Part shown: positions 3,037 to 58,639 of the stretch, one piece after another | How the letters are laid out: each line of letters opens with the position of its first letter | Position numbering within the stretch: position 1 is the first letter of the stretch | Sequence record: PZ445429.1 | DNA: 64,000 bases | Strand: one strand, 5' to 3' | From: a phage | Notes under the pieces: generated by a model | Seen by the model: the letters and a program-made list of their open reading frames with translations, nothing else | Databases searched by the model: none | Told to the model about the DNA's origin: nothing | Translations under genes and position numbers: made by a program

Positions 3037-5367
3037 ATGAGCCATCGCATCGAAAAAGTAATTAAACGTGACGGTACTGTTCAGGACTTTGCTCCTGAAA
3101 AACTCAATGATTGGGCTGCATGGGCATGTAAAGATACTGACGTAAGTTGGTCTGCCGTAGTTATGGCTGCCCTGAAAAATCTACCCAAAGGTGTTGTAGA
3201 TTCCGATACACTCCAAGATGTGTTAATTAAAGCTGCTGAAGGTCTTATCAAAGACAATCCAGCATATGATACTGTAGCAAAGGAATTACGTCTTGCGCAG
3301 ATGCGTAAACGCCTCTATGATTCCTTCGAACCACCTTCTCTACGTTTCTTCCACGATCATATGGTTCGTGTCGGCGCTTGGGAAGACATGAGTGCATGGA
3401 TTAGCGATGATCAGTTTGACGCTCTGAACCAAGTTATTGATCATGATCGCGATCGTTTATTCACCAGTGGTGGACTGAAACAGTTCTTCGACAAGTATTC
3501 CCGTCGTAATATTGCAACTGGTGAAATTTATGAAACCCCGCAGTTTGCCTACATGGGTATGGCAATGGCGATGCTATCTCAACCTAACTGGACAATTCTC
3601 GATGCAATCGACCTCTACAACGCAATGTCACTCCATAAAATCAACGTGCCGACTCCACCTCTCGTGGGTCTTAGGAGCAGCGACCGCGGTTTTGCTTCTT
3701 GTTGTCTTGTTGATAGTACTGATACCCTCGATTCAATCGACACAGCCGAGCACATCGTCTTCAAAATGGTCGCAGCCAGAGCGGGAATCGGGTATCATCT
3801 TGAAAGCCGATCAATTGCTGATCCGGTGCGAAATGGGGCATTCCCGCATTCCGGAAAACTGCCATATTATCGACACATTGACCGATCAGTAAAAGCTAAC
3901 ACTCAGCAAACCCGTGGTGGTTCTGCTACTGTGTCTTACCCATACTTCGATCCTGAAATCATTCAGTTGATGCAGGTTAAGCAGCAACGTGCTACAGACG
4001 AGAATAAAATCGATAAGATGGATTACTCTCTGAGCTTTAACAACCTTCTGTTAAAACGTTACCTGAAAAATGAAGATATTACGCTAATGTCCTACTTCTA
4101 CGCACCAGAAGTTCATGAAGCGTTTTATGGCGAAGATGAGGCTAAGTTTGAAGAAATCTACGTGGCAGCGGAGAAACGTGTGGCATCTCTTACAAAGATC
4201 GACCACGAAGGAAAAACAATTCCAGCAGCTCCTAGAATCTCTGCAAAAGAAATCCTAGATACTTGGTTACGTATCCGTATGGAAACAGGGCGTATGTATG
4301 CTCATCACATTGGTGAATCTAACCGTCATGGTAACTTCCTTGACCCGATTCGTATGACCAACCTTTGTGTTGAAATTACTCAGCCAACCCGTCCATTCCA
4401 TCACATTACGGAGCTGTATAAGACCCAAGATCAGTTAGACGATATGCGTCCAGAAGATATTGGTGAAGTATCTCTGTGTAACTTAGGTGGTGTTGTACTA
4501 GGTCGTATGGAATCTCTGGCTGAATGGGAGAAAACTTGCTACATTCTTCTGAAATTCGTTGATACAATCATCGAGATTCAGGATTACCCATTCCCAACTA
4601 TGGAGTACACGGCTAAGAAACGTCGTAACGTTGGTATTGGTCTGATGAACGCAGCAGGTGCAATGGCAGCAGAAGGTTTGGCTTACGAAGGTGTTGAAGC
4701 CCGTAACTGGATTCACCGTGAAGCTGAAAAGCTGTCCTACTTCCTACATAAAGCCTCTGTACGTCTGGCTAAAGAACAAGGTGCATGTGACTGGTTTAAT
4801 CGTACTAAGCCTTCGCAAGGAACTCTGGTAATCGACACGTACAAGAAAACTGTTGATGAACTGGTAACTGTAGGTCTAGAAATGGATTGGGAATCTCTGC
4901 GTGCAGATATTCTGAAATATGGTATGCGCAACTCTGTTCTGACTGCTCAGATGCCAGGTGAAAGTTCCTCTGTACTGCTAGGTGTTACTAACTCTATCGA
5001 ACCGCCCCGTAAGATCGTATCTATCAAGGGTAGTGCAGTGAATAAAGTAATTGCAATTGCTCCAGGTGCAACTGATTGGGATACATTAATGAGCTATAAA
5101 CTGGCTTATGATGTAGATCGTATCGAGTGGATCAAATGGGTAGCAACCATGCAGAAATTCTTCAGCCAGTCTATCAGTACGAATATGTACTATGACTACA
5201 CCAAGTTCGAGAATGAAATCATTCCCGGCCCAGTAGTAGTTCGTGACTTTATGACTGCTGTTAAGTACGGTTGGAAAACTTGGTACTACGCTAACTTCAA
5301 CACTGAAAATGGTGGTGGAGCTGGTGAAGAAGCAGCAGGTTGTGCATCAGGTGGTTGTAACCTATAA
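3037..5367 (+). CDS. nrdA: ribonucleoside-diphosphate reductase alpha subunit (class Ia)
   Basis: ATP-cone VIKRDG at N-terminus, catalytic NLCVEI region, C-terminal Cys pair, 776 aa; start moved to ATG 3037 with RBS AAGGAAAG. Confidence 0.95.
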   Translation: MSHRIEKVIKRDGTVQDFAPEKLNDWAAWACKDTDVSWSAVVMAALKNLPKGVVDSDTLQDVLIKAAEGLIKDNPAYDTVAKELRLAQMRKRLYDSFEPPSLRFFHDHMVRVGAWEDMSAWISDDQFDALNQVIDHDRDRLFTSGGLKQFFDKYSRRNIATGEIYETPQFAYMGMAMAMLSQPNWTILDAIDLYNAMSLHKINVPTPPLVGLRSSDRGFASCCLVDSTDTLDSIDTAEHIVFKMVAARAGIGYHLESRSIADPVRNGAFPHSGKLPYYRHIDRSVKANTQQTRGGSATVSYPYFDPEIIQLMQVKQQRATDENKIDKMDYSLSFNNLLLKRYLKNEDITLMSYFYAPEVHEAFYGEDEAKFEEIYVAAEKRVASLTKIDHEGKTIPAAPRISAKEILDTWLRIRMETGRMYAHHIGESNRHGNFLDPIRMTNLCVEITQPTRPFHHITELYKTQDQLDDMRPEDIGEVSLCNLGGVVLGRMESLAEWEKTCYILLKFVDTIIEIQDYPFPTMEYTAKKRRNVGIGLMNAAGAMAAEGLAYEGVEARNWIHREAEKLSYFLHKASVRLAKEQGACDWFNRTKPSQGTLVIDTYKKTVDELVTVGLEMDWESLRADILKYGMRNSVLTAQMPGESSSVLLGVTNSIEPPRKIVSIKGSAVNKVIAIAPGATDWDTLMSYKLAYDVDRIEWIKWVATMQKFFSQSISTNMYYDYTKFENEIIPGPVVVRDFMTAVKYGWKTWYYANFNTENGGGAGEEAAGCASGGCNL

Positions 5368-5989: not shown

Positions 5990-7135
5990 ATGACAACCTT
6001 ACTAAATCTGAACTGGAATCCTGATTCTGAAGAGCTATTTCTCGGAGATGCCCTGGGAGTAGCAGACTATGTTCGTGTTGCTCATCCAGAGCTAGAACGA
6101 CTCGCACTATTACAGAGGAGCCAGTTTTGGACTGAAACTGAAATCAGTCTAGAAAGTGACAAAAAGCAATGGCCTAATCTTCCAAGAGAAATACAAGAAA
6201 TCACTCTGCTGAACTTAGCTTGGCAGGTTCAAACAGATTCTTTCATTAGCCGTGCTCCTGAAGCAGCTATTATGCCGCTTGTAAGCCGTCCTGAATTGGA
6301 GGGTATGCTCAAGCAGTGGAGCTACTTCGAAGATCTGCACAGCCGTGCGTATAGTAATATTATTCGTAACGTTCTGACTGATCCAGCAGAATTTATTGAT
6401 TCTGTAACTAAAAACCAAGAAGCATTTGCACGTATCGCAGATTCTGTTGAACTGTTTGATGAATTGTATCTGTTAGGTCAGTATTTCCTTGCAGTACGTG
6501 ATCATCGTGGTGATAATACTTATCCAGAAACTGAGTTCCCTGAAGTTAAACGTGAAACTCAGGCTAAGCTGTTAGATGCTTACTTTGCAATCTACGGTCT
6601 GGAAGCAATGCAGTTCTACGCATCCTTTGCATGTACCTTTGCTCTAGCAGAGAACGATATTCTGCAAGGTATTGCTAAGAACCTGCAATTAATCGCTAAA
6701 GATGAAGCTCTACATACTCAAATGTCTAAAGCTATCATCCAGATTATGTTTCAGCAATTTGATAAAGATCTGGTAGATGAAGCATTAGCTAAAGCACCAA
6801 CACAACTCCTAAAAACTCTGAAAACTGAGATTGAATGGGGTCATTTTATCTTTAAAGGCCGTAGTCTGATTGGTTTGAACGCAGAACTGCTTGAAGAATA
6901 CCTTTACTTTGTAGGACGTAACGCATTTATGCACATTGGTGTAGAATGGCCAAGCCACTTACCTGTAATTACTAAGAACCCTATTCCGTGGATCATGAAC
7001 TGGTTGGATACTACATCTTTACAACCTGCTCCGCAAGAGATTCAGATTGGCGCAGCATATCGTGTAGGTCAAGTCACAGAAACATCTATGGATACTCTGA
7101 AAGATCTTGGCAACGAATTTGAGGGTATGTTCTAA
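5990..7135 (+). CDS. nrdB: ribonucleoside-diphosphate reductase beta subunit
   Basis: 381 aa, di-iron ligand pattern (ENDILQG...EALHTQ), conserved F/Y region. Confidence 0.9.
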   Translation: MTTLLNLNWNPDSEELFLGDALGVADYVRVAHPELERLALLQRSQFWTETEISLESDKKQWPNLPREIQEITLLNLAWQVQTDSFISRAPEAAIMPLVSRPELEGMLKQWSYFEDLHSRAYSNIIRNVLTDPAEFIDSVTKNQEAFARIADSVELFDELYLLGQYFLAVRDHRGDNTYPETEFPEVKRETQAKLLDAYFAIYGLEAMQFYASFACTFALAENDILQGIAKNLQLIAKDEALHTQMSKAIIQIMFQQFDKDLVDEALAKAPTQLLKTLKTEIEWGHFIFKGRSLIGLNAELLEEYLYFVGRNAFMHIGVEWPSHLPVITKNPIPWIMNWLDTTSLQPAPQEIQIGAAYRVGQVTETSMDTLKDLGNEFEGMF

Positions 7136-8971: not shown

Positions 8972-9550
8972 ATGACAGCCATAGTAGCATTTAAATATAA
9001 AGATAAAGTATACTTAGCTGGTGATCGTATGGGTTCTAATGGCTATACGAAACTGCTGGTTAAAAATCCGAAAGTATTCAAAATCTCTGATGATTTGTAC
9101 TTCGGATACACTAGTTCCTTCTACATGGGACAATTACTAGAGCATAGCTTTACTGTACCACCACGTTTAGCAGATATTTCTGATGATAAATATTTATATA
9201 CGGAAATAGTACCTAAATTACGTGATATGTTTAACCAGAAAGATTTTGGCGAAAAGAAAAATGAAAAATATGCTGAACCTAATCTGGGACAATTTATTAT
9301 GCTCTACAAAGGAAGAATCTTTATTTTCCAATCTAATGCTTCTATTCTAGAAGTTGAATATGCCGGTGTAGGCTGTGGAGGAGAAGATGTACTTTCCAGT
9401 ATTCGTACAGGTTTAGCTATTGCGGATTGTCGAGCCACAGATTTAGATGTAGATGATATATTTGAAATCATTGATCTGGCTTTTACGCATTGTGCAGATT
9501 ATATGTGTGGTGTATCTTCTCAACATGATGTTTTAGTAATTGGAGAATAA
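8972..9550 (+). CDS. Ntn-hydrolase, HslV/proteasome-beta-like (putative)
   Basis: N-terminal M-TAIVAFKYKDKVYLAGDRMGS parallels HslV TTIVSVRRNGHVVIAGDGQ (Thr1 nucleophile after Met removal); RBS GAAGGA. Confidence 0.4.
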   Translation: MTAIVAFKYKDKVYLAGDRMGSNGYTKLLVKNPKVFKISDDLYFGYTSSFYMGQLLEHSFTVPPRLADISDDKYLYTEIVPKLRDMFNQKDFGEKKNEKYAEPNLGQFIMLYKGRIFIFQSNASILEVEYAGVGCGGEDVLSSIRTGLAIADCRATDLDVDDIFEIIDLAFTHCADYMCGVSSQHDVLVIGE

Positions 9551-9552
9551 AT

Positions 9553-9822
9553 ATGTCTATTCTTTTATCTGCTTTAGAAGCAAAACAAAATACTATTGCT
9601 AGCATTAAAAAGGAAGTAATTGACCTAGAATCACTTATTGCCGTAGAGATTGACAAAGCTATTAAAGATAAAGAATTTAATTGTCACATCCAGGGATTAA
9701 CTGAATACTCAGAAAACGCTAGAAATAGCGTCATGCAAAAACTTAGCAAACTAGGTTATGTTGTAGAAGCTAAGTATGAACAGCGTGAAGGTTTTTGGCT
9801 TGAAATTGATTGGAGCAAATAA
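9553..9822 (+). CDS. hypothetical protein (89 aa)
   Basis: ORF with RBS, no motif recognised. Confidence 0.45.
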   Translation: MSILLSALEAKQNTIASIKKEVIDLESLIAVEIDKAIKDKEFNCHIQGLTEYSENARNSVMQKLSKLGYVVEAKYEQREGFWLEIDWSK

Positions 9823-16513: not shown

Positions 16514-17023
16514 ATGAATCTAGGAACAACTTGTATCTTTGATCATCAAGAAATGTGTTGCCCTCGTATTCTGCATATAGCACACTTCTCCGAACGATTG
16601 ACGCTTGATCAAGCTCGTGAGAAAATGAGTGAGATTACAGGATACAATCTTCGAGAAGGTGAATACTTTAGCGTAGCTTTGGATTATATCGACAATACTC
16701 GTCTTTATCACTTAGTTCAGCTTGGTGAAGAAACTGAGGAAGTAAAAATGGCGAAAGATACATTACGTCGTTATCGCCCTCAGATTCTAGAGCGTACACT
16801 TCGTGGAGAGCCTAGTGATTACTTCTATATGCGTTGCTATGACGCAGATGCTACTCAATATGTTAATCTAAATCGCTTCTATCATGATGTGAATGATTTT
16901 CTGGACAAGAAATATGATGAATTAATCATAGCATCCAAAGCACAACGTGCCGCTAGAAATGCTGAAAAGGCTGCTAAAGAAGCTGTAGAAAGCCAAACTA
17001 AATTGAACGAAATCATTAAGTAA
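16514..17023 (+). CDS. hypothetical protein (169 aa)
   Basis: ORF with RBS AAAGGAA. Confidence 0.5.
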   Translation: MNLGTTCIFDHQEMCCPRILHIAHFSERLTLDQAREKMSEITGYNLREGEYFSVALDYIDNTRLYHLVQLGEETEEVKMAKDTLRRYRPQILERTLRGEPSDYFYMRCYDADATQYVNLNRFYHDVNDFLDKKYDELIIASKAQRAARNAEKAAKEAVESQTKLNEIIK

Positions 17024-49146: not shown

Positions 49147-49505
49147 AACTCTATGAAATAACATAGAATAAAGAGATCCACCCGGATACGGATGGTGGAT
49201 GGGAAACTTCTATTTCCCCCGTAGCTCGTCGGAGGGCTAGGGAAATCTTCAGAAGTTTTGTACCATCTCACGCAATTCGTATCCCAGGGGTGGAACATCT
49301 CTCACAATCCTTGAGGATCTTATACTTAAATTAAAGTTAAAACTTTTGACCACATAATTCACATTCAAGATGATACACTTGTTGCCGCCGCTCTTCCTAG
49401 GATGGCACAACACTTTCTAGTAGACTCCTAAGTTTCTAGGAAAACCCTGTCGTATTTGCCCATGTTATAGGGCAGTTTCTCCTGTTCCTAGAAACTCCAG
49501 CAATA

Positions 49506-49577
49506 GGCGGTTTAATACAGGGCGGTTTAATACAGGGCGGTTTAATACAGGGCGGTTATGGGGAGGGCGGTTATTTC
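49506..49577. repeat. 15-bp tandem direct repeat GGGCGGTTTAATACA x3 plus degenerate copies
   Basis: three exact head-to-tail copies followed by GGGCGGTTATG and GGGAGGGCGGTTAT. Confidence 0.8.
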
Positions 49578-49615
49578 TAGACAACATTTTTCCAAAACAC
49601 ATTTCTGGATTTTAC

Positions 49616-50217
49616 TGTCGGATTTGCACACTATGTTTCTAGAAATTTATGGTCGGATTTGCACATTGATAGGAGTCTCCAAAGTTTTTAGGAACACTGA
49701 AAATAGCAGCATTATTTCGGGCCGAAGGCCCGTATTTGCCTGAGTTTTTAGAGCCACAGGAATTTTCACTTGTCAAGCGATTTTGCCCCATTTTGCTAAT
49801 AAAATTTCGCTTTATCTCCACTAATCTCAATTCTAGCCAAAACATCCCACATTATCCCCAAAAACGCAGCAAACCGGTGCTGAAGCACCACCACAGCTGC
49901 ACCCTCCATAGTTCCTCCAAAAAACCTCGTCGGATTCGCACTTCTCCCCAAACTCACACAATCATACACCCTCTCATCGAAGTCACAAAAATCTTGTCGG
50001 TTTTGCACACCTTAACACTTGTCGTATTTGCACATATTCTAGTAAATCCAGCTGGATTGCATCGCAGTTGTGGATTGCTGGAGTTTTTAGGAAAATTCAT
50101 TGTCGGATTCGCACATATAAAAAATATTTCCCATCGGATTTGCACACTACCAAAAATTGTCGGATTCGCACATGCACACTGGCACGTAATCCGTGGGGGC
50201 AAATGTCGGATTTGCAC
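49616..50217. repeat. iteron array: at least 9 dispersed copies of TGTCGGATT(T/C)GCACA
   Basis: copies near 49616, 49651, 49926, 49994, 50019, 50101, 50132, 50158, 50203, mostly same orientation, irregular spacing. Confidence 0.75.
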
Positions 50218-50259
50218 AAAAGCGCAGGGCAAAAATGAAAATGCCCTGCCTGCCGAAAT

Positions 50260-50440
50260 GCGAATGATAATGAGATTGATTAGCATTTGAGAAGTTGAAT
50301 GCGAATGAGAATGATTCGCGTTTAGAAAGAGGAATGAGAATGGTTATCATTTAGAAAGCGGAATGAGAACAGTTATCATTTATAGAGTTGAATGCGAATG
50401 AGTCGCATAATGAGAATGATTCGCGTTTAGAAATGGAAGT
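50260..50440. repeat. GAATGAGAATG-type direct repeat family
   Basis: TTGAATGCGAATGAG...AATGATTCGCGTTTAGAAA twice and GGAATGAGAA(T/C)(G/A)GTTATCATTTA twice. Confidence 0.7.
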
Positions 50441-50460
50441 GAGAAACACTGTTATTTAAG

Positions 50461-50543
50461 TTATCAACAGGTTTATTAACAGCACGATTTGACTTGACAA
50501 AATCCTAGCGATTTTGAGGCGTTATCAACAGACTTATTAACAG
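50461..50543. promoter_or_regulatory. cluster of four DnaA-box-like 9-mers
   Basis: TTATCAACA x2 and TTATTAACA x2 (1-2 mismatches to TTATCCACA). Confidence 0.4.
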
Positions 50544-50550
50544 GTTATTC

Positions 50551-50570
50551 TACTGTATAAATATACAGTA
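50551..50570. promoter_or_regulatory. LexA (SOS) box, near-consensus
   Basis: TACTGTATAAATATACAGTA (consensus TACTGTATATATATACAGTA, 1 mismatch). Confidence 0.55.
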
Positions 50571-50599
50571 TTCCTATACAGTGAATAATTCTAATATAG

Positions 50600-50630
50600 C
50601 TCTAAAACGCTCTGTAACGCATCCTAACGC
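50600..50630. repeat. 31-bp direct-repeat motif TCTAAAACGCTCTGTAACGCAT(C/T)CTAA(C/G)CGC, copy 1
   Basis: second copy at 54886-54916, both preceded by TTATTAACAGG. Confidence 0.6.
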
Positions 50631-50715
50631 GTTTATTTTTGGAGGAGGTATTTTAATAAGGGGAAATTTGTTTGCAGGCAGAAAAGGCGGGGCCGATAGT
50701 TGCGCCCCGTTATTA

Positions 50716-50955
50716 TTAGTCTGCTATGTATTCCTTCTCGTAGTCGTCAAAGATCTGGACGGTTTCGGCTGGCGTATATCCGTATGAATCAAAATGCGTA
50801 CATGTTGAAACTGAATTGATCCACGCCCCTAGCGCCGCCGTACTAGCTCCGCTTTTCTGCATTTCTAAAAATTGCGCATATTGCGCATCAGTTAAATGAT
50901 GCTGCATAATATCGGTTTCTTTACGTTCTACATATCGTAAAATTCTTACAGCCAT
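50716..50955 (-). CDS. pre-early cassette protein (79 aa)
   Basis: minus-strand ORF with RBS AGGAG; last gene of IR-bracketed cassette. Confidence 0.45.
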   Translation of the reverse strand: MAVRILRYVERKETDIMQHHLTDAQYAQFLEMQKSGASTAALGAWINSVSTCTHFDSYGYTPAETVQIFDDYEKEYIAD

Positions 50956-51078
50956 GCCATTGCTCCTAGAATGAGAATGATTATCAATATCATTGTAAAG
51001 CCATTACCAAATCGTAAACGCTGGGAATGTTTCCCAGCGGTATTATTAGATTTATGGCTTTGTGTTTTTCGCCACCAG

Positions 51079-51279
51079 CTATTCACGGTAAACGCTCCAA
51101 CCGTCTAGCTTCCATTCCTCCCCCTTGCGAATATTGAAAAACCAATCATTAAAATTGTAACCATCTTCCGACATGATCACGCCGTTTTCTTTCATGTACA
51201 AAAATTCATCGCTAGTAAAATATTGATTACTAACTTTGAAACCTTGTTTCATTTTTTCTAACGCTTCATCTTTAGTCAT
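51079..51279 (-). CDS. pre-early cassette protein (66 aa)
   Basis: minus-strand ORF, coupled to upstream gene. Confidence 0.45.
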   Translation of the reverse strand: MTKDEALEKMKQGFKVSNQYFTSDEFLYMKENGVIMSEDGYNFNDWFFNIRKGEEWKLDGWSVYRE

Positions 51280-51620
51280 TGCGCCACCTTTCGAAACGCT
51301 GTTTCGATACTTTCAGCGGTTGATTGAATATATGCGCCTTTCATAATCAGGCGCTCTGTACATACTTTGCGGAAAATGTCAATAAATTCATTTTCATTTT
51401 CTGCTACTAATGGCTCACCCATAACCTGTACATCACATGCGCCAAAAGTAAGAAACTGGAAGGCAAGCTCGCGAGCAACAACGGCATTAATCTTATAATG
51501 TGCTTTGCCTTCATAGATATTAACCACGCCTTTATAAACTGGTGAAAGCTGATTTAAATAGCTTGCTAATAATGCCGGACGGCAATTAGTAACAAAACGA
51601 TTACCCTCGTATATAACCAT
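51276..51620 (-). CDS. pre-early cassette protein (114 aa)
   Basis: minus-strand ORF with RBS. Confidence 0.5.
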   Translation of the reverse strand: MVIYEGNRFVTNCRPALLASYLNQLSPVYKGVVNIYEGKAHYKINAVVARELAFQFLTFGACDVQVMGEPLVAENENEFIDIFRKVCTERLIMKGAYIQSTAESIETAFRKVAQ

Positions 51621-51729
51621 TTGTCAAGCTCCTAAAGCTGGGAAAATATCAGGTACATTTTTAAAACAAATGCAGCGAATGAGCAAACAACGCCAACGGT
51701 AGCAAACGCTAGAGCAATATATAAGGATC

Positions 51730-51948
51730 TCATAATACCCCCCGAAAAGCAGCGTAAAAGGTGGCAAAGTGTTTAACCGTTTCGGCTACCAAATTTCCGC
51801 GCTTGTCAAATTTCTTTTCAGTAACACGAAACGCGTTTTTGTTGCGTGCTACATATTCGATTTTACAATCTGGACGCTCAAACGTGTTAACATCCACCAG
51901 CTTAAAACCTTTAGAACGGGCAAGGGAAACATTCTTTAACATTTGCAT
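51730..51948 (-). CDS. pre-early cassette protein (~72 aa)
   Basis: start set at ATG after RBS AGGAG (track ORF 51730-52035 overlaps neighbour). Confidence 0.4.
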   Translation of the reverse strand: MQMLKNVSLARSKGFKLVDVNTFERPDCKIEYVARNKNAFRVTEKKFDKRGNLVAETVKHFATFYAAFRGVL

Positions 51949-51995
51949 GACTCCTAGTAAGGGAATGAGGGGCGAAAGTAACGCCCCGTTATTAT

Positions 51996-52226
51996 TTACA
52001 TTAAAACAATTTTCGCCGCTTGCTTTTTGGTGCAATGTTCTGATTTCAACGTGTCCAGCAAAAATCCGGCGGTTTGCTGGTCAATCTTATCATTATCATA
52101 AAGCGCCTGAATGGTAACATAAGTTTTACCAATCCCAAATTCAGAAACCATCTGATCAATAATCCAGCGATTAGACACCCAACCTTTACCAGTGAAAAGA
52201 GAGTCAGAAGAAGAGAAAGCAACCAT
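51996..52226 (-). CDS. pre-early cassette protein (76 aa)
   Basis: minus-strand ORF with RBS GGAGG. Confidence 0.45.
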   Translation of the reverse strand: MVAFSSSDSLFTGKGWVSNRWIIDQMVSEFGIGKTYVTIQALYDNDKIDQQTAGFLLDTLKSEHCTKKQAAKIVLM

Positions 52227-52333
52227 TTTAACGCCTCCTAGAAATCAGGGAAAATTTTCAATCCACCGTTTCGGTGTAAAGGCATTATAACAAAAAAGGC
52301 CGCCGATTAAGGCGACCTTTACAAAACTTTACA

Positions 52334-52828
52334 TTAGACTATTTCTAATGCTTCCACGCCGAAACAGCGTTTTAGTTCTTTCTGTAAAACGGCATATTCA
52401 CCCCAACGGGAATTATCAGGAATATAAACAAGCTGTTTTAATCGATTTGCATATAATAACGCCTTGTTACCAACTATTTCCGCGCCACCGTGTTTAATAA
52501 TTAGTTTCATAACGGTATTAATAGGATCGCCGCCATTTACATAAGTACCGGACTTACTCAATTGATAATGATAAAGACTCGCATATACATTATCATTTTC
52601 AATCCATTCCCCTGTTTCTTCATTTTCTTCCCCATCGCTACCGAAACGAGAAGCATTATCATATGCGTGTTCGTTTGCGAAAGCGTCCAGATCACAGCCA
52701 GCGGGAACAAAATGTTCTTCCGTCCAGCCCTCCCCACAATAGCCAGTATGACAATCAACTAAAACGATCATATCGTGTTTAGCTTCATTCACACTTTCTA
52801 GCGAAAAGCCATATTTTTCTTCTGACAT
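52334..52828 (-). CDS. pre-early cassette acidic protein (164 aa)
   Basis: minus-strand ORF with RBS GGAGACTAATTATG. Confidence 0.5.
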   Translation of the reverse strand: MSEEKYGFSLESVNEAKHDMIVLVDCHTGYCGEGWTEEHFVPAGCDLDAFANEHAYDNASRFGSDGEENEETGEWIENDNVYASLYHYQLSKSGTYVNGGDPINTVMKLIIKHGGAEIVGNKALLYANRLKQLVYIPDNSRWGEYAVLQKELKRCFGVEALEIV

Positions 52829-52841
52829 AATTAGTCTCCTA

Positions 52842-53150
52842 TTAATTAGTAGGGAAATAAAGAGAATTTGCTACACCGTAAAATCCTTTATTCAAGAAAA
52901 TTACGTCATCACGGACTATTTCATCCATTCCATAATCCAGCAAAGTTTCATCTACAAAAATACATAGCCAGCCATAACCACGATCAAAGAAAGCATGATA
53001 ATTATTCGCGCTTTCTACATGTTCCCATAAAAAGGGACGCCCTTGCTTTTCCCATATAGGAATATTGCTTTGATCGTCCGAATAATTAACATGTGGGCTA
53101 TTCGGCATTTTTTCGGCTAATTGCGCTAACATGATTTGATTTAGTTGCAT
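52842..53150 (-). CDS. pre-early cassette protein (102 aa)
   Basis: minus-strand ORF with RBS AGGAGACTAG. Confidence 0.5.
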   Translation of the reverse strand: MQLNQIMLAQLAEKMPNSPHVNYSDDQSNIPIWEKQGRPFLWEHVESANNYHAFFDRGYGWLCIFVDETLLDYGMDEIVRDDVIFLNKGFYGVANSLYFPTN

Positions 53151-53188
53151 AATAACTAGTCTCCTAACAATTAACAGGGAAATAGTAA

Positions 53189-53208
53189 AGCGGGGAATAA
53201 TCCCCGCT
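53189..53208. terminator. palindrome AGCGGGGAATAATCCCCGCT (family of three) downstream of minus-strand gene
   Basis: perfect GC-rich inverted repeat after stop of 53217-54212. Confidence 0.5.
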
Positions 53209-53216
53209 AGTAATTA

Positions 53217-54212
53217 TTACTCTGTTTCGGCGCTTTGAGTAAAGGTAGAAATGTCAATGCCTTTTACCATTTCATCGATCATTTCCGCAATGTTGAAACT
53301 CTGTACCATTTCCAACATTGCCGCTTCCATTGCCGCGCCTGCTACCGCTTTAGCTTTCGCATTAGTCGGGGCGTACTGGTCAACCGCTACGCTTAACAGG
53401 TTAGCGATCACTACGCGACCGATCGGCGTATCGATATAACCTTTAATCATAAACGGCGCTTTTTTCGCCGCTACTTTTGTGATTTGAATCAGTGCAATTT
53501 TACCCGCTTCCAATTTAGCAGCGTTTACAACGGCGGATTTATTAGCGGCAACGATAGAAGATACTTTAGACATAATATTTCCTTTATTTTCAGTAGTTTG
53601 CGCATTTGCGCTTGAAGTTTGAGATTGTACAGCCTGTTTTGTTACATTGTCAAGCGGTAAAAGTGTAAATCCAGCGTTTGCAACGTTTGATTCATTCCCA
53701 TACTCTAAATAATCGTTAGGGATCAACATGTTACCGCTAGCGCGTTCAAAACACAATACGCCAGTTGTTTCGATTGCGTCACTATCAGCACCTTTATAAC
53801 TGGATGATAATTCACGCCAGATACTAGATAGTAAATCTTCTACATCGCTGGAATTAATACCATTTACGCGAGTAGCGAAAACCATTTCTTTTTCTTGTAC
53901 ATTGTAACCACGGGCAATATAGCTTTTTTCGTCGTGACCTACAATGATAAAATCAATATCGCTTCCCCGCTGATTTCGCATGATGTGATAGTCACGGTTG
54001 TAAAGCACTAGAACGCGGGTAGGGTCTAGTAATTGTGTGAAATCACTTAAACAATAATGAGTATCATTATTATCTAAAATTTCATCGTGAATCTTTTCGA
54101 TAATAGTAGCCGTATGTTGTACGCTTGCCGCACTACTACCATCTAGCAGGTTGCGCAAACTACCCTTAATAATAGTGGCGTTTGCTGGTACTGCAATTCT
54201 TACAGTAGACAT
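53217..54212 (-). CDS. pre-early cassette protein (331 aa), first gene of minus-strand operon
   Basis: RBS GAGGGGGACAAAGAAATG; palindromic terminator downstream at 53189-53208. Confidence 0.55.
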   Translation of the reverse strand: MSTVRIAVPANATIIKGSLRNLLDGSSAASVQHTATIIEKIHDEILDNNDTHYCLSDFTQLLDPTRVLVLYNRDYHIMRNQRGSDIDFIIVGHDEKSYIARGYNVQEKEMVFATRVNGINSSDVEDLLSSIWRELSSSYKGADSDAIETTGVLCFERASGNMLIPNDYLEYGNESNVANAGFTLLPLDNVTKQAVQSQTSSANAQTTENKGNIMSKVSSIVAANKSAVVNAAKLEAGKIALIQITKVAAKKAPFMIKGYIDTPIGRVVIANLLSVAVDQYAPTNAKAKAVAGAAMEAAMLEMVQSFNIAEMIDEMVKGIDISTFTQSAETE

Positions 54213-54460
54213 TTCTTTGTCCCCCTCGTTAATCGGTGAGTGAATGATATAGATAATTGTTCGCTAGGGGCAAGAAAAAAGAAAAGGTTTTTTATTCCTT
54301 GCCTACTGCCTGTTTTTATGATAGCCGCGCGTTTTCTATTTCTAGCTCTCTGTATGCGTACACAAGGCTTTATTATAATAAGGGTAGCAGCGAGAAAACC
54401 GTTTAGAATGCGTTCTAGGCCGCTTAAATTTGATTGCGGTTGTTACTGCTACCATTCTAC

Positions 54461-54480
54461 CCTGTATATTTATACAGTAG
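54461..54480. promoter_or_regulatory. LexA (SOS) box
   Basis: CCTGTATATTTATACAGTAG, CTGT-N8-ACAG core; ~250 bp upstream of minus-strand operon start 54212. Confidence 0.5.
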
Positions 54481-54487
54481 GATAACC

Positions 54488-54569
54488 TGTGAATAAGTCT
54501 GTGGATAAGTCGCCAAAACGTCGCCTATTGCGTCAAGTTATTTTGTGCTGTGGATAACTTTGTGAATAA
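54488..54569. promoter_or_regulatory. cluster of four DnaA-box-like 9-mers
   Basis: TGTGGATAA x2 (perfect complement of TTATCCACA) and TGTGAATAA x2. Confidence 0.5.
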
Positions 54570-54885
54570 CCTAAATGATAGTGGTTCTCACTTAGCCGAT
54601 AGTTTCTTATAGTTATTATTTCTCTTTAATTTATAAGTATATAATATAATATGAAATAGTTAGTTGGCTAATAGGTTTTTAGAGTATTAATAGTCTGCTA
54701 ACTGTTTCGGCTGTTACAATCCACCAGCGTGATTATTATCCTAGCGATTGTTAGTATGCTAACCAATCAATGCACGTCTAAACTTATTTGTCAATGAAAA
54801 ATAACAGCAGAAAATACTTTTTTGAAAAATCAAGTGGATAACTCATTAAATTTCATTTTTGCTTTTTGTATAAGTTATTAACAGG

Positions 54886-54916
54886 GTCTAAAACGCTCTG
54901 TAACGCATTCTAAGCG
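54886..54916. repeat. 31-bp direct-repeat motif, copy 2
   Basis: see copy 1. Confidence 0.6.
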
Positions 54917-56163: not shown

Positions 56164-56580
56164 ATGTCTAACGTTAAAACCGAAAAAACCGCAAAATTTT
56201 CTTGGAACGAAGAAAACACCGAAAAAGCTGTTTCTATGTATTCTGAAATGGTCGCTAAAAGCGGGATTGAATTTGCAAACAGTGACGGCCTGAAAGAAAT
56301 TGCCGCCGCCGTTGGTGCTGCTAGTCCGGTGTCTGTACGTTCTAAATTGACCAGTGCAAAAGCCTACCAGAAAAGCGACAAGCCGCGTAAAGTTGGCGGC
56401 GGGTCTAGTGTCCGTAAAGCTCACTATGTGCGCGTCATTGCTAAACATGCCATTGATAGCGGCATTGTAAAAGACGCTGACGATCTGGCAAGTCTGGAAA
56501 GTGCAAAACTTGAAACGCTGGAAGCCGTGGCGCAATTGTTAGGCGTAGCGGAGGAAGTGAAACAGGCCGCAGGTGAATAA
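56164..56580 (+). CDS. hypothetical protein (138 aa)
   Basis: RBS GGAGTATTAAATTATG; palindrome terminator 56590-56609. Confidence 0.5.
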   Translation: MSNVKTEKTAKFSWNEENTEKAVSMYSEMVAKSGIEFANSDGLKEIAAAVGAASPVSVRSKLTSAKAYQKSDKPRKVGGGSSVRKAHYVRVIAKHAIDSGIVKDADDLASLESAKLETLEAVAQLLGVAEEVKQAAGE

Positions 56581-56974: not shown

Positions 56975-58639
56975 ATGAATATTTCCGCAGAAAAACAAGC
57001 TCAAATTCTGAAAATGGCCGCAGATTTTAACTTCTACGGTAAGCGTTTACGCGCTACTAAATTGGAAGTTTGCGACGATATTTCAAAAGCTGTTTATGAT
57101 ACGCCGAAACATTCAACCGCAATTTGTGACTGGCTGGAAGCAAATAAGCCAGCGAAACCGAAAGCGGCAAAAGCTGAAAAGGCGATTAAAAATGATGATC
57201 GCCCCGAAGCGGCGGGAATTGTTTCTAGTACCGTTGAACAATGGGAAGTTAAATCCGGTCGCCGTTTTATTCTAACGTCGATTCAAAATAATACTTTCCC
57301 GCATAAAAACTTTTTAGCAAGTCTGGAAAAATTCGCTGAATATTGCGGCGCTGAATTGCTGATTAGTAAATTCATTTATAATAAAAATGGATTCCAGAAC
57401 GGGGAAGGGGCAAACGGTATTAAATACGATCCCGCATTTGATAAATATGTTTGTGATAAAAACGTATTTTTAAATAACCGCCGCTTTGCTTTCATGGCTG
57501 AAATTAACGTTTTACCAACGGCAGATTATCCGCTTTCAGGATTCGCAGAAACCGCCACGGCTTTAAATATCGAAGGTCTGGCAATTGGTCACGCAAAAAT
57601 TACCGCTGAAAGTGTTCCCGCGCTTAAAGGTGAAGTAGTGCGCCGTATGTATTCAACCGGAACGGCTACGCTTAAAAACTACATTCAGCAGAAAGCAGGT
57701 CAAAAAGCTGAGGCTTTACATAATTACGGCGCTTTGCTGGTGGAGTTCGACGACGACGGAGAATTTTATTGCCGCCAGCTTGAAACAATGGATGAAAGCG
57801 GAATGTTCTATGATTTGAATGTTTGCGCTATGCCTACCGGATGTTTTGAAACGTCCGATCATGTTCTAGGCTTGCAATATGGCGATATTCACGCCGAAAA
57901 ACTAGATGATGATTGCGCCGTCGCTTCATGGGCTAGTGAAAACAGCTTGCTTGATATTCTTAAACCGAAATATCAATTTATTCATGATGTGCATGATTTT
58001 ACATCCCGCAATCACCATAACCGCGCAAGTGGTGTATTCCTTGCTAAACAATACGCCGCCGGACGTGATAAAGTTATTGATGATCTTATCGATACGGGTC
58101 GCGTATTAGAGTCTATGGAGCGTGATTTCTCTCAAACAATCATTGTGGAATCTAACCATGATTTAGCTCTTTCACGCTGGCTTGATGATCGTAACGCTAA
58201 CATTAAAGATGATCCCGCAAACGCGGAATTGTATCACCGTCTAAACGCTGCGATTTACGCCGCTATTGCTGAAAAGGATGATACCTTTAACGTGCTAGAT
58301 TACGCCTTGCGGAACGTCGCAGGTTGTGAATTTAACGCTATTTTCCTGACTACTGACCAATCATTTAAAATCGCTGGCATTGAATGCGGCGTACATGGTC
58401 ACAATGGCATTAACGGCAGTCGGGGCAATCCTAAGCAGTTTAAAAAGTTGGGACGCCTTAACACTGGTCACACTCACACGGCTAGCATTTACGGCGGCGT
58501 TTATACCGCTGGCGTTGCTGGTAGTCTCGATATGGGTTACAACGTTGGCGCGTCAAGCTGGACGCAAACGCATTTAATTACATATGCAAACGGTCAACGT
58601 ACCTTGATTGATTTCAAAAATGGCAAATTCTTTGCCTAA
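56975..58639 (+). CDS. A1: A1-like pre-early protein with calcineurin-type metallophosphoesterase/nuclease motifs
   Basis: 554 aa (T5 A1 is ~556 aa); GDIHAEKLD, ESNHDL, GHNG, GHTHTA motifs; followed by A2-like and dmp-like genes. Confidence 0.55.
   Translation: MNISAEKQAQILKMAADFNFYGKRLRATKLEVCDDISKAVYDTPKHSTAICDWLEANKPAKPKAAKAEKAIKNDDRPEAAGIVSSTVEQWEVKSGRRFILTSIQNNTFPHKNFLASLEKFAEYCGAELLISKFIYNKNGFQNGEGANGIKYDPAFDKYVCDKNVFLNNRRFAFMAEINVLPTADYPLSGFAETATALNIEGLAIGHAKITAESVPALKGEVVRRMYSTGTATLKNYIQQKAGQKAEALHNYGALLVEFDDDGEFYCRQLETMDESGMFYDLNVCAMPTGCFETSDHVLGLQYGDIHAEKLDDDCAVASWASENSLLDILKPKYQFIHDVHDFTSRNHHNRASGVFLAKQYAAGRDKVIDDLIDTGRVLESMERDFSQTIIVESNHDLALSRWLDDRNANIKDDPANAELYHRLNAAIYAAIAEKDDTFNVLDYALRNVAGCEFNAIFLTTDQSFKIAGIECGVHGHNGINGSRGNPKQFKKLGRLNTGHTHTASIYGGVYTAGVAGSLDMGYNVGASSWTQTHLITYANGQRTLIDFKNGKFFA

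Follow-up and report, generated by a model that had tools for sequence, protein, structure and literature searches.

The DNA that a virulent T5-like phage first sends into its host carries two copies of a 20-bp palindrome that reads as an SOS box of Escherichia coli. From the comparisons described below, we consider, with a probability of about 0.6, that selection has acted on LexA binding in both palindromes and that the functional unit is a composite module, in which the LexA sites are combined with DnaA sites. The palindrome, the inverted repeat to which it belongs and the DnaA boxes are already known. What is new is the presence of SOS boxes in an unusual context, i.e., in a virulent phage, away from promoters, fused to DnaA boxes and at the injection-stop region. 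Neither LexA nor SOS is mentioned by Davison 2020, and no link between LexA and T5, the T5-like phages or Tequintavirus was found in the literature searched. In the publications consulted, which run up to 2026, the stop signal is described with its DnaA boxes, palindromes and repeats and never with LexA, an earlier remark being possible in Wang 2005, Heusterspreute 1987 or Davison 2015.

The two boxes and the inverted repeat that carries them

The analysed sequence (the window, i.e., the whole 64-kb stretch of phage DNA) belongs to a T5-like Epseptimavirus with 92-96% identity to Klebsiella phage 150049, to the Salmonella phages S114 and S126, and to EPS7. The phage is virulent, as the original prediction assumed when it spoke of a strictly lytic T5-like phage. 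Its placement of the boxes in pre-early, first-step-transfer DNA is likewise confirmed by the annotations of S114 and T5, from which the gene map in Table 1 was made; the orientation of the window is opposite to that of the T5 map.

Box 1, at 50551-50570, agrees with the E. coli LexA consensus TACTGTATATATATACAGTA in 19 of its 20 positions, so that the single mismatch ascribed to it in advance is verified. Box 2 agrees with the consensus in 17 of 20 positions, i.e., with three mismatches, and has an intact CTGT-N8-ACAG core. The string originally quoted for box 2 is indeed found at 54461-54480, core included, but its register was wrong, the proper 20-bp box being the one given in Table 1.

The strength of the boxes was evaluated with a symmetrised weight matrix for 31 E. 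coli SOS boxes, the site list being an approximate one after Lewis 1994 and Fernandez de Henestrosa 2000. With this matrix box 1 scores 25.6 bits and box 2 scores 22.4 bits, while the runner-up 20-mer in the window scores 13.6 bits. The E. coli training sites span 12.1 to 23.7 bits, which means that box 1 exceeds all 31 of them. When the window is dinucleotide-shuffled 300 times, the mean of the maximal score is 12.8 bits and the largest maximum is 19.8 bits, and the analytic per-position probability is about 1e-10 for box 1 and about 1e-8 for box 2. The question of chance density, which was raised together with the original prediction, is thereby answered: the window holds no 20-mer comparable to the two boxes. 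As copies that belong to a single inverted repeat, they should not be counted as two separate events. Across the whole of T5 (112 kb when one terminal repeat is included), scores above 18 bits occur only at the two homologous sites, and the next-best scores, 15.6 and 15.1 bits, fall within the portal and DNA polymerase genes.

If only the bare core is considered, a chance match or a functionless neutral relic might be imagined: CTGT-N8-ACAG is found 2 times where 0.8 is expected, and 19 of 100 shuffles contain at least two, so that its frequency is about what chance predicts and not significant. The full-length scores, the shuffles, the genome-wide uniqueness and the conservation from E. coli to Vibrio phages nevertheless effectively refute this reading, the probability of which we regard as negligible.

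Two minor observations concern other LexA-like sequences. The 15.6-bit site at T5 105308-105327 (CACTGGACAAGCCTACAGTA) is kept in many T5-like phages about 8.3-10.4 kb downstream of the A1 start (e.g., at 16729 in locus L007); since it lies inside the T5 portal gene, its conservation is probably coding-driven. At its right end, box 1 is overlapped by an extra ACAGT half-site, TACAGTATTCCTATACAGTG (50564-50583, 12.0 bits), so that ATACAGT occurs twice, 13 nt apart; the half-site is only moderately conserved, and T5 has ACGCAGTG in this place.

The boxes form the inner tips of two inverted-repeat arms of 132 nt each, which are 77% complementary. The positions and the gene order are as in T5, the arm lengths nearly so, and the element is homologous to the IRD/IRD' element of that phage, with which it shares the 20-mer, a repeat of 131-132 nt, four DnaA-type boxes per arm and the map position. 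The 20-mer of box 1 is identical to T5 9330-9349, annotated as 'palindrome D', and the T5 homologue of box 2 is CACTGTATAAATATACAGGG at 6135-6154, the tip of IRD. The IRD/IRD' repeat, with eight DnaA-type boxes, is conserved among T5-like phages (Davison 2020). In T5, palindrome D is followed after about 290 bp by the calculated shear point at 9618, and after about 330 bp by the 7.9% nick (Davison; T5 record). In earlier descriptions of T5 the palindrome was left without an explanation or was taken for a possible target of a nuclease, whereas it is here identified as a LexA-like site.

Both boxes had been placed about 250 bp upstream of the start of the minus-strand operon. This is right for box 2, as the operon starts at 54212, and wrong for box 1, which borders the injection-stop repeat region beyond the 3' end of the same operon. 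The ORFs of the operon belong to DUF7566 and to PHROGs of unknown function. The likely terminator hairpin between the operon and box 1 is absent from the output of the terminator scan because its T-run is short.

Table 1. [quoted passage not shown]
Feature	Position	Strand	Remark
Early genes T5p022 to p018	~46-49.1 kb	+	S114/T5 annotation
Injection-stop-signal repeat region	49400-50436		Repeats; annotated in S114 as 'similar to DNA injection stop signal'
Inverted-repeat arm 1	50437-50568	+	Homologue of T5 IRD'spacerIRC'; proximal to injection-stop signal
Four DnaA-like boxes, two pairs	50461-50542	+	TTATCAACA at 50461 and 50522; TTATTAACA at 50473 and 50534
LexA-like box 1	50551-50570		TACTGTATAAATATACAGTA
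CTAAAACGCTCTGTAACGC motif	50601-50633	+	AACGC three times at 10-bp period (50606, 50616, 50626); 30 nt from box 1
Likely operon terminator	50688-50709	-	G+C-rich hairpin, then CCTTTTC; sequence reading; between last ORF and box 1
Variable pre-early accessory operon	50716-54212	-	T5p014- to T5p010-like ORFs; a LexA-like box on either side
Divergent intergenic region	54.2-55.3 kb
Promoter-like site of the operon, TTGCCC-18-TATCAT	54244-54273	-	Homologue of the putative promoter P4 of T5; box 2 at a distance of ~190 bp
Inverted, diverged copy of CTAAAACGCTCTGTAACGC motif	54400-54425	-	35 nt from box 2
LexA-like box 2	54460-54479		CCCTGTATATTTATACAGTA; minus strand TACTGTATAAATATACAGGG
Inverted-repeat arm 2	54462-54593	-	Homologue of T5 IRCspacerIRD; in divergent pre-early intergenic region
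Four consensus DnaA boxes	54488-54569	-	TGTGAATAA at 54488 and 54561; TGTGGATAA at 54500 and 54549
Second direct copy of CTAAAACGCTCTGTAACGC motif	54887-54913	+	96% identical to 50601-50627
p008 (hdi), p007, A2, p005, A1	A2 56164-56580; A1 56975-58639	+

No other part of the first-step region varies as much as the accessory operon. Among relatives, the distance between the two arms ranges from about 1.6 to 7.8 kb, and the non-coding arms are much better conserved than the genes that they enclose.

DnaA boxes and conservation among T5-like phages

The neighbourhood of LexA and DnaA boxes, which was part of the original prediction, is present in both arms in the same form, with four DnaA-type boxes per arm and a gap of 8 nt to the LexA-like box. 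In arm 1 each of the four is one mismatch away from the consensus, and the last of them ends 8 nt before box 1. In arm 2 the first DnaA box begins 8 nt past box 2, and the boxes of this arm make up four of the six consensus DnaA boxes of the 64-kb window. Each arm has two pairs, the members of which are 3 nt apart, as Davison describes for T5. The spacing to the LexA-like palindrome is also preserved among relatives: an outward-facing DnaA-like 9-mer lies exactly 8 nt away in 65 of 80 distinct strong LexA-like sites, and 7-9 nt away in 71.

The CTAAAACGCTCTGTAACGC motif, copies of which are found close to both boxes (Table 1), may be a third protein-binding component of the module, and in distant T5-like phages, those of Vibrio and Pectobacterium among them, a related motif, cgcttacagagcgttttag, stands directly beside a LexA-like box that lies upstream of A2. 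A search for the composite element outside the T5-like phages gave one short, irrelevant plasmid match, and none was found in 5,426 E. coli genomes.

Conservation was evaluated in 63 IMG/VR loci, anchored on the conserved A1 protein, together with named phages. Strong boxes are found in nearly every sampled T5-like lineage with an adequate upstream flank, over A1 identities from 99% down to about 31% and including Klebsiella, Pectobacterium and Vibrio phages. The stop-proximal copy, which corresponds to box 1, is near-universal, and several Vibrio-type lineages keep only this copy at full strength. Four loci have no strong match. One of them, the Vibrio-type L064, has DnaA boxes and A2, and its LexA-like boxes are weakened (16.5 and 11.2 bits). 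The other three (L055, L067 and L069) are metagenomic. In a flank-anchored alignment of 32 distinct enteric T5-like phages, box 1 ranks first in conservation among the 301 windows of 20 nt that lie within 150 nt on either side, while box 2 has rank 25 of 301; the whole repeat is strongly conserved as well.

To our knowledge, the hosts of T5-like phages are all Gammaproteobacteria, which have one common LexA motif. Host tracking, in the sense of another palindrome beside the DnaA boxes, was considered and set aside: only the three box-less metagenomic loci came up, and they are uninformative in this respect because they also have neither DnaA-box clusters nor a convincing A2.

The pattern of variation is informative about the constraint. 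The N8 centre of the palindrome varies (ATAAATAT, ATATTTAT, ATATCCAT and ATAAATAA occur), while the CTGT and ACAG arms are kept, and in several lineages CTGT is replaced by CTGG, which is the commonest variant of real SOS boxes. The flank-aligned boxes show 18 distinct substitutions, the mean cost of which is 1.14 bits, compared with 3.54 bits for all possible changes, and out of 20,000 random substitution sets none is as low as 1.14 bits. As judged from these alignments, the substitutions are shown to avoid the positions that are critical for LexA and to follow its recognition profile. LexA binding that harmed the phage would be lost by one change in CTG or CAG, and these letters have been kept from coliphages to vibriophages; from this follows that LexA binding is probably under selection.

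One may ask whether the palindrome is instead structural DNA, i.e., an AT-rich sequence that extrudes as a cruciform or hairpin in the injection-stop region without any sequence-specific protein. This region is packed with palindromes and repeats that have long been suspected of acting through secondary structure. The variants, however, are single and uncompensated, with no covariation that would preserve the symmetry, which argues against a hairpin constraint. Furthermore, the exact CTGT and ACAG letters are kept over very large evolutionary distances, although any palindrome would serve the structural purpose, and the second copy is far from the stop point. We therefore hold a purely structural role to be very unlikely.

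A phage protein as the true ligand of the palindrome is a more serious alternative, though still, in our estimate, a rather improbable one. The protein could be A2, the A1/A2 nuclease of Davison's 'restriction-site' model or a virion protein, and the likeness to a LexA site would then be incidental or a case of mimicry. A2, the only conserved pre-early DNA-binding protein, is common to all box-bearing lineages, although its DNA binding is itself a prediction, and PalD is among the candidate cleavage palindromes of Davison 2020. A pre-early protein of the T5-like Salmonella phage JSS1, JSS1_004, is reported to give ChIP-seq signals at two host promoters with SOS boxes, those of recA and lexA, recA being down-regulated (PMC12345140); this protein may connect first-step-transfer functions with the SOS system in a second way. 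The central positions of the palindrome are also more conserved than LexA requires: positions 7-9 and 12-14 have about 1.3-1.45 bits in phage sites and about 0.6-0.8 bits in host sites, a comparison that is biased by the weight-matrix selection of the phage set. This extra conservation could reflect selection for maximal affinity or a second ligand.

Against such a ligand stands, first of all, the per-position probability of about 1e-10 for an accidental 19-of-20 match to the host consensus, and also the substitution pattern, which fits the E. coli LexA matrix. A2 shows no LexA-like fold; it was rejected as a LexA-like protein, having no Pfam domain, no sequence match in the PDB and a Myb/GcrA-like helical domain rather than the winged helix of LexA type. 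Moreover, it is established that the cell contains LexA ahead of every phage protein, and LexA would bind to sites of this kind in any case, and the neighbouring sites belong to another host protein, DnaA. Binding of host LexA is for these reasons preferred here.

Some natural variants of the boxes may be recorded separately, the weakened ones counting against a selected LexA site. S114 (locus L001) has a weakened box 1 at 3969-3988 (TACTATAT, with CTAT, 18.1 bits), and the arm 2 boxes of L021, L024, L026 and L035 are weakened to CCTTGT or TCTTGT (16.5-17.7 bits). The two central bases flip between AA and TT (50558-50563 and 54467-54472; L007-L049) among close relatives, for instance L014 and L015, and also between the two arms. 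These flips, which are neutral for LexA, suggest gene conversion between the arms or inversion of the palindrome.

Promoters and SOS control

The most familiar role for LexA boxes would be that of classic SOS operators, at which LexA represses pre-early transcription of the T5p010-p014-like genes, of the A2-A1 operon or of both, so that expression goes up only in SOS-induced cells or after phage-driven breakdown of the host DNA. Box 2 is situated among the divergent pre-early promoters, with about 250 bp between it and the start codon of the operon, and in three relatives (L050, L051 and L058) the box abuts a TTGAC(A/T) hexamer. At box 1 there is a weak promoter-like site, TATACA-16-AATAAT (50562-50589), the first hexamer of which lies inside the box.

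A closer look at these sites gives another picture. The site at 50562-50589 matches in only 9 of 12 positions, and its downstream flank is not conserved in the Klebsiella-type relatives. The TTGACA hexamers beside the boxes have no acceptable -10 sequence at 16-18 nt, better candidates being found about 100 bp further away. A consensus scan found no strong sigma-70-like promoter over either box in the window, or in distant relatives, and the best promoter-like sites in both are 100-200 bp from the boxes. Finally, the near-universal box 1 is downstream of the 3' end of the operon and has no gene to control. Neither box thus overlaps a good promoter, and classic SOS repression is not supported; we judge it unlikely. 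The missing promoter overlap also counts against the LexA reading as such, because it is what a LexA operator would normally be expected to have.

This also affects the proposal, made in the original prediction, that host LexA gates transcription or replication. Gating of transcription finds no support in the positions, as the promoter-like site of the operon is about 190 bp away from box 2. Gating of replication is unsupported as well, since the T5 origins are near the centre of the genome and first-step DNA carries none of the replication genes (Davison). The core of the proposal, an action of host LexA and DnaA on the DNA that enters the cell first, is, on the other hand, strengthened by the conservation data and is plausible.

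Two further searches in the same region may be mentioned. A LexA-repressed small RNA, which would extend from the site at 50562-50589 across the AACGC repeats into a hairpin (50616-50633), was rejected, as Klebsiella-type and Vibrio relatives lack the flank with the putative -10 sequence, and Rfam gave no match for the candidate RNA at the box 1 region. A fuzzy and noisy search with strings of the T5 promoters PN25, PN26 and PD/E20 did not map any of them to the terminal repeat.

The boxes may be compared with known LexA-controlled elements. The SOS boxes of Gammaproteobacteria (such as dinD, umuDC, sulA, recN and the colicin genes) have the same 20-bp palindrome, TACTGT-N8-ACAGTA; the phage boxes score at or above the best of these operators and show the same tolerated variants, i.e., CTGG and a variable AT-rich centre. 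Host operators, however, overlap or adjoin the promoter that they repress, while the phage boxes do not. Unlike host operators, the phage boxes are set at a fixed distance of 8 nt from DnaA-box pairs, their two copies are inverted with 3.9 kb between them, and the genome that carries them is that of a virulent phage.

LexA also controls mobile elements, such as CTXphi at PrstA, Bacillus phage GIL01 at P1 (with gp7), coliphage 186 at tum, the antirepressors of the Gifsy phages and the colicin operons. All these elements resemble the present one in that they carry operators for host LexA, by which the element is coupled to the SOS state. The difference is that they are temperate phages or plasmids, in which LexA at promoters times induction, whereas here the phage is virulent and the boxes are off-promoter.

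A possible role of LexA and DnaA on the first DNA to enter the cell

If promoter occlusion is set aside, what could LexA do at these sites? An E. coli cell has of the order of a thousand LexA molecules, and consensus-like boxes are bound with sub-nanomolar affinity. From this abundance and affinity follows that LexA should occupy the boxes once the DNA has entered, and its dimers would do so within seconds, before any phage protein has been made. Together with DnaA, LexA would then build a nucleoprotein complex on the first-step-transfer DNA at the inner tips of IRD and IRD', and the complex at box 1, the near-universal copy, would have the last pre-early terminator on one side and the pause point of the transfer on the other. 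This position of box 1, the lack of a promoter at either copy and the maximal strength of the sites together speak for an architectural role rather than repression. LexA could act as a barrier or an anchor in connection with the injection pause, in a way that is sensitive to the SOS state of the host and does not involve promoter occlusion. That the boxes have a specific role in the injection pause is a tentative suggestion from their sequence and position, less probable than the selection for LexA binding as such.

The arrest of T5 transfer after 8% of the genome, and its restart minutes later, has been a question since the 1960s. A 2026 paper still calls the stop/restart mechanism poorly understood, and a 2023 paper notes that experimental studies on the role of the DnaA boxes are lacking. 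LexA now becomes the second specific and purifiable host protein to consider at the stop region, for which host mutants in lexA and recA exist. A stronger version of the suggestion is that LexA and DnaA are a physical part of the injection-stop/restart switch, and that LexA, clamped to palindrome D on the inner side of the stop point and about 300 bp away from it, helps to hold or insulate the paused DNA; this we regard as quite unlikely. Were it true, it would be a non-transcriptional, mechanical use of the SOS repressor by a virulent phage.

An obligatory gate, in which LexA must be cleaved before second-step transfer, was considered and is disfavoured. T5 forms plaques on E. coli XL-1 Blue, which is recA1 (PMC8108384), and LexA cleavage is therefore not obligatory for T5 growth.

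A strictly virulent phage that keeps SOS boxes, with LexA sites that are not at promoters, would be unusual. If LexA occupancy affects the pause, SOS-inducing antibiotics could alter infection by this group of phages, which is in wide use for the biocontrol of Salmonella, E. coli and Klebsiella.

The arrangement of the DnaA boxes invites comparison with oriC-type arrays, which likewise have oriented DnaA-box pairs with fixed spacing in two opposed arrays. In contrast to oriC, the phage arrays are 3.9 kb apart, are flanked by LexA boxes and lie on DNA that is not a replication origin (Davison).

The layout of the surrounding DNA has some features of its own. A very AT-rich stretch at 54600-54700 adjoins the DnaA boxes of arm 2 and resembles an unwinding element. 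The injection-stop repeats at 49506-50458 include three tandem copies of GGCGGTTTAATACAG (49506-49565), at least seven distinct copies of TGTCGGATTTGCAC-type repeats (49611-50221) and six iteron-like repeats of AATGAGAATGATTCGC type (50234-50458), and together with the DnaA boxes they give the region a layout like that of an iteron plasmid origin.
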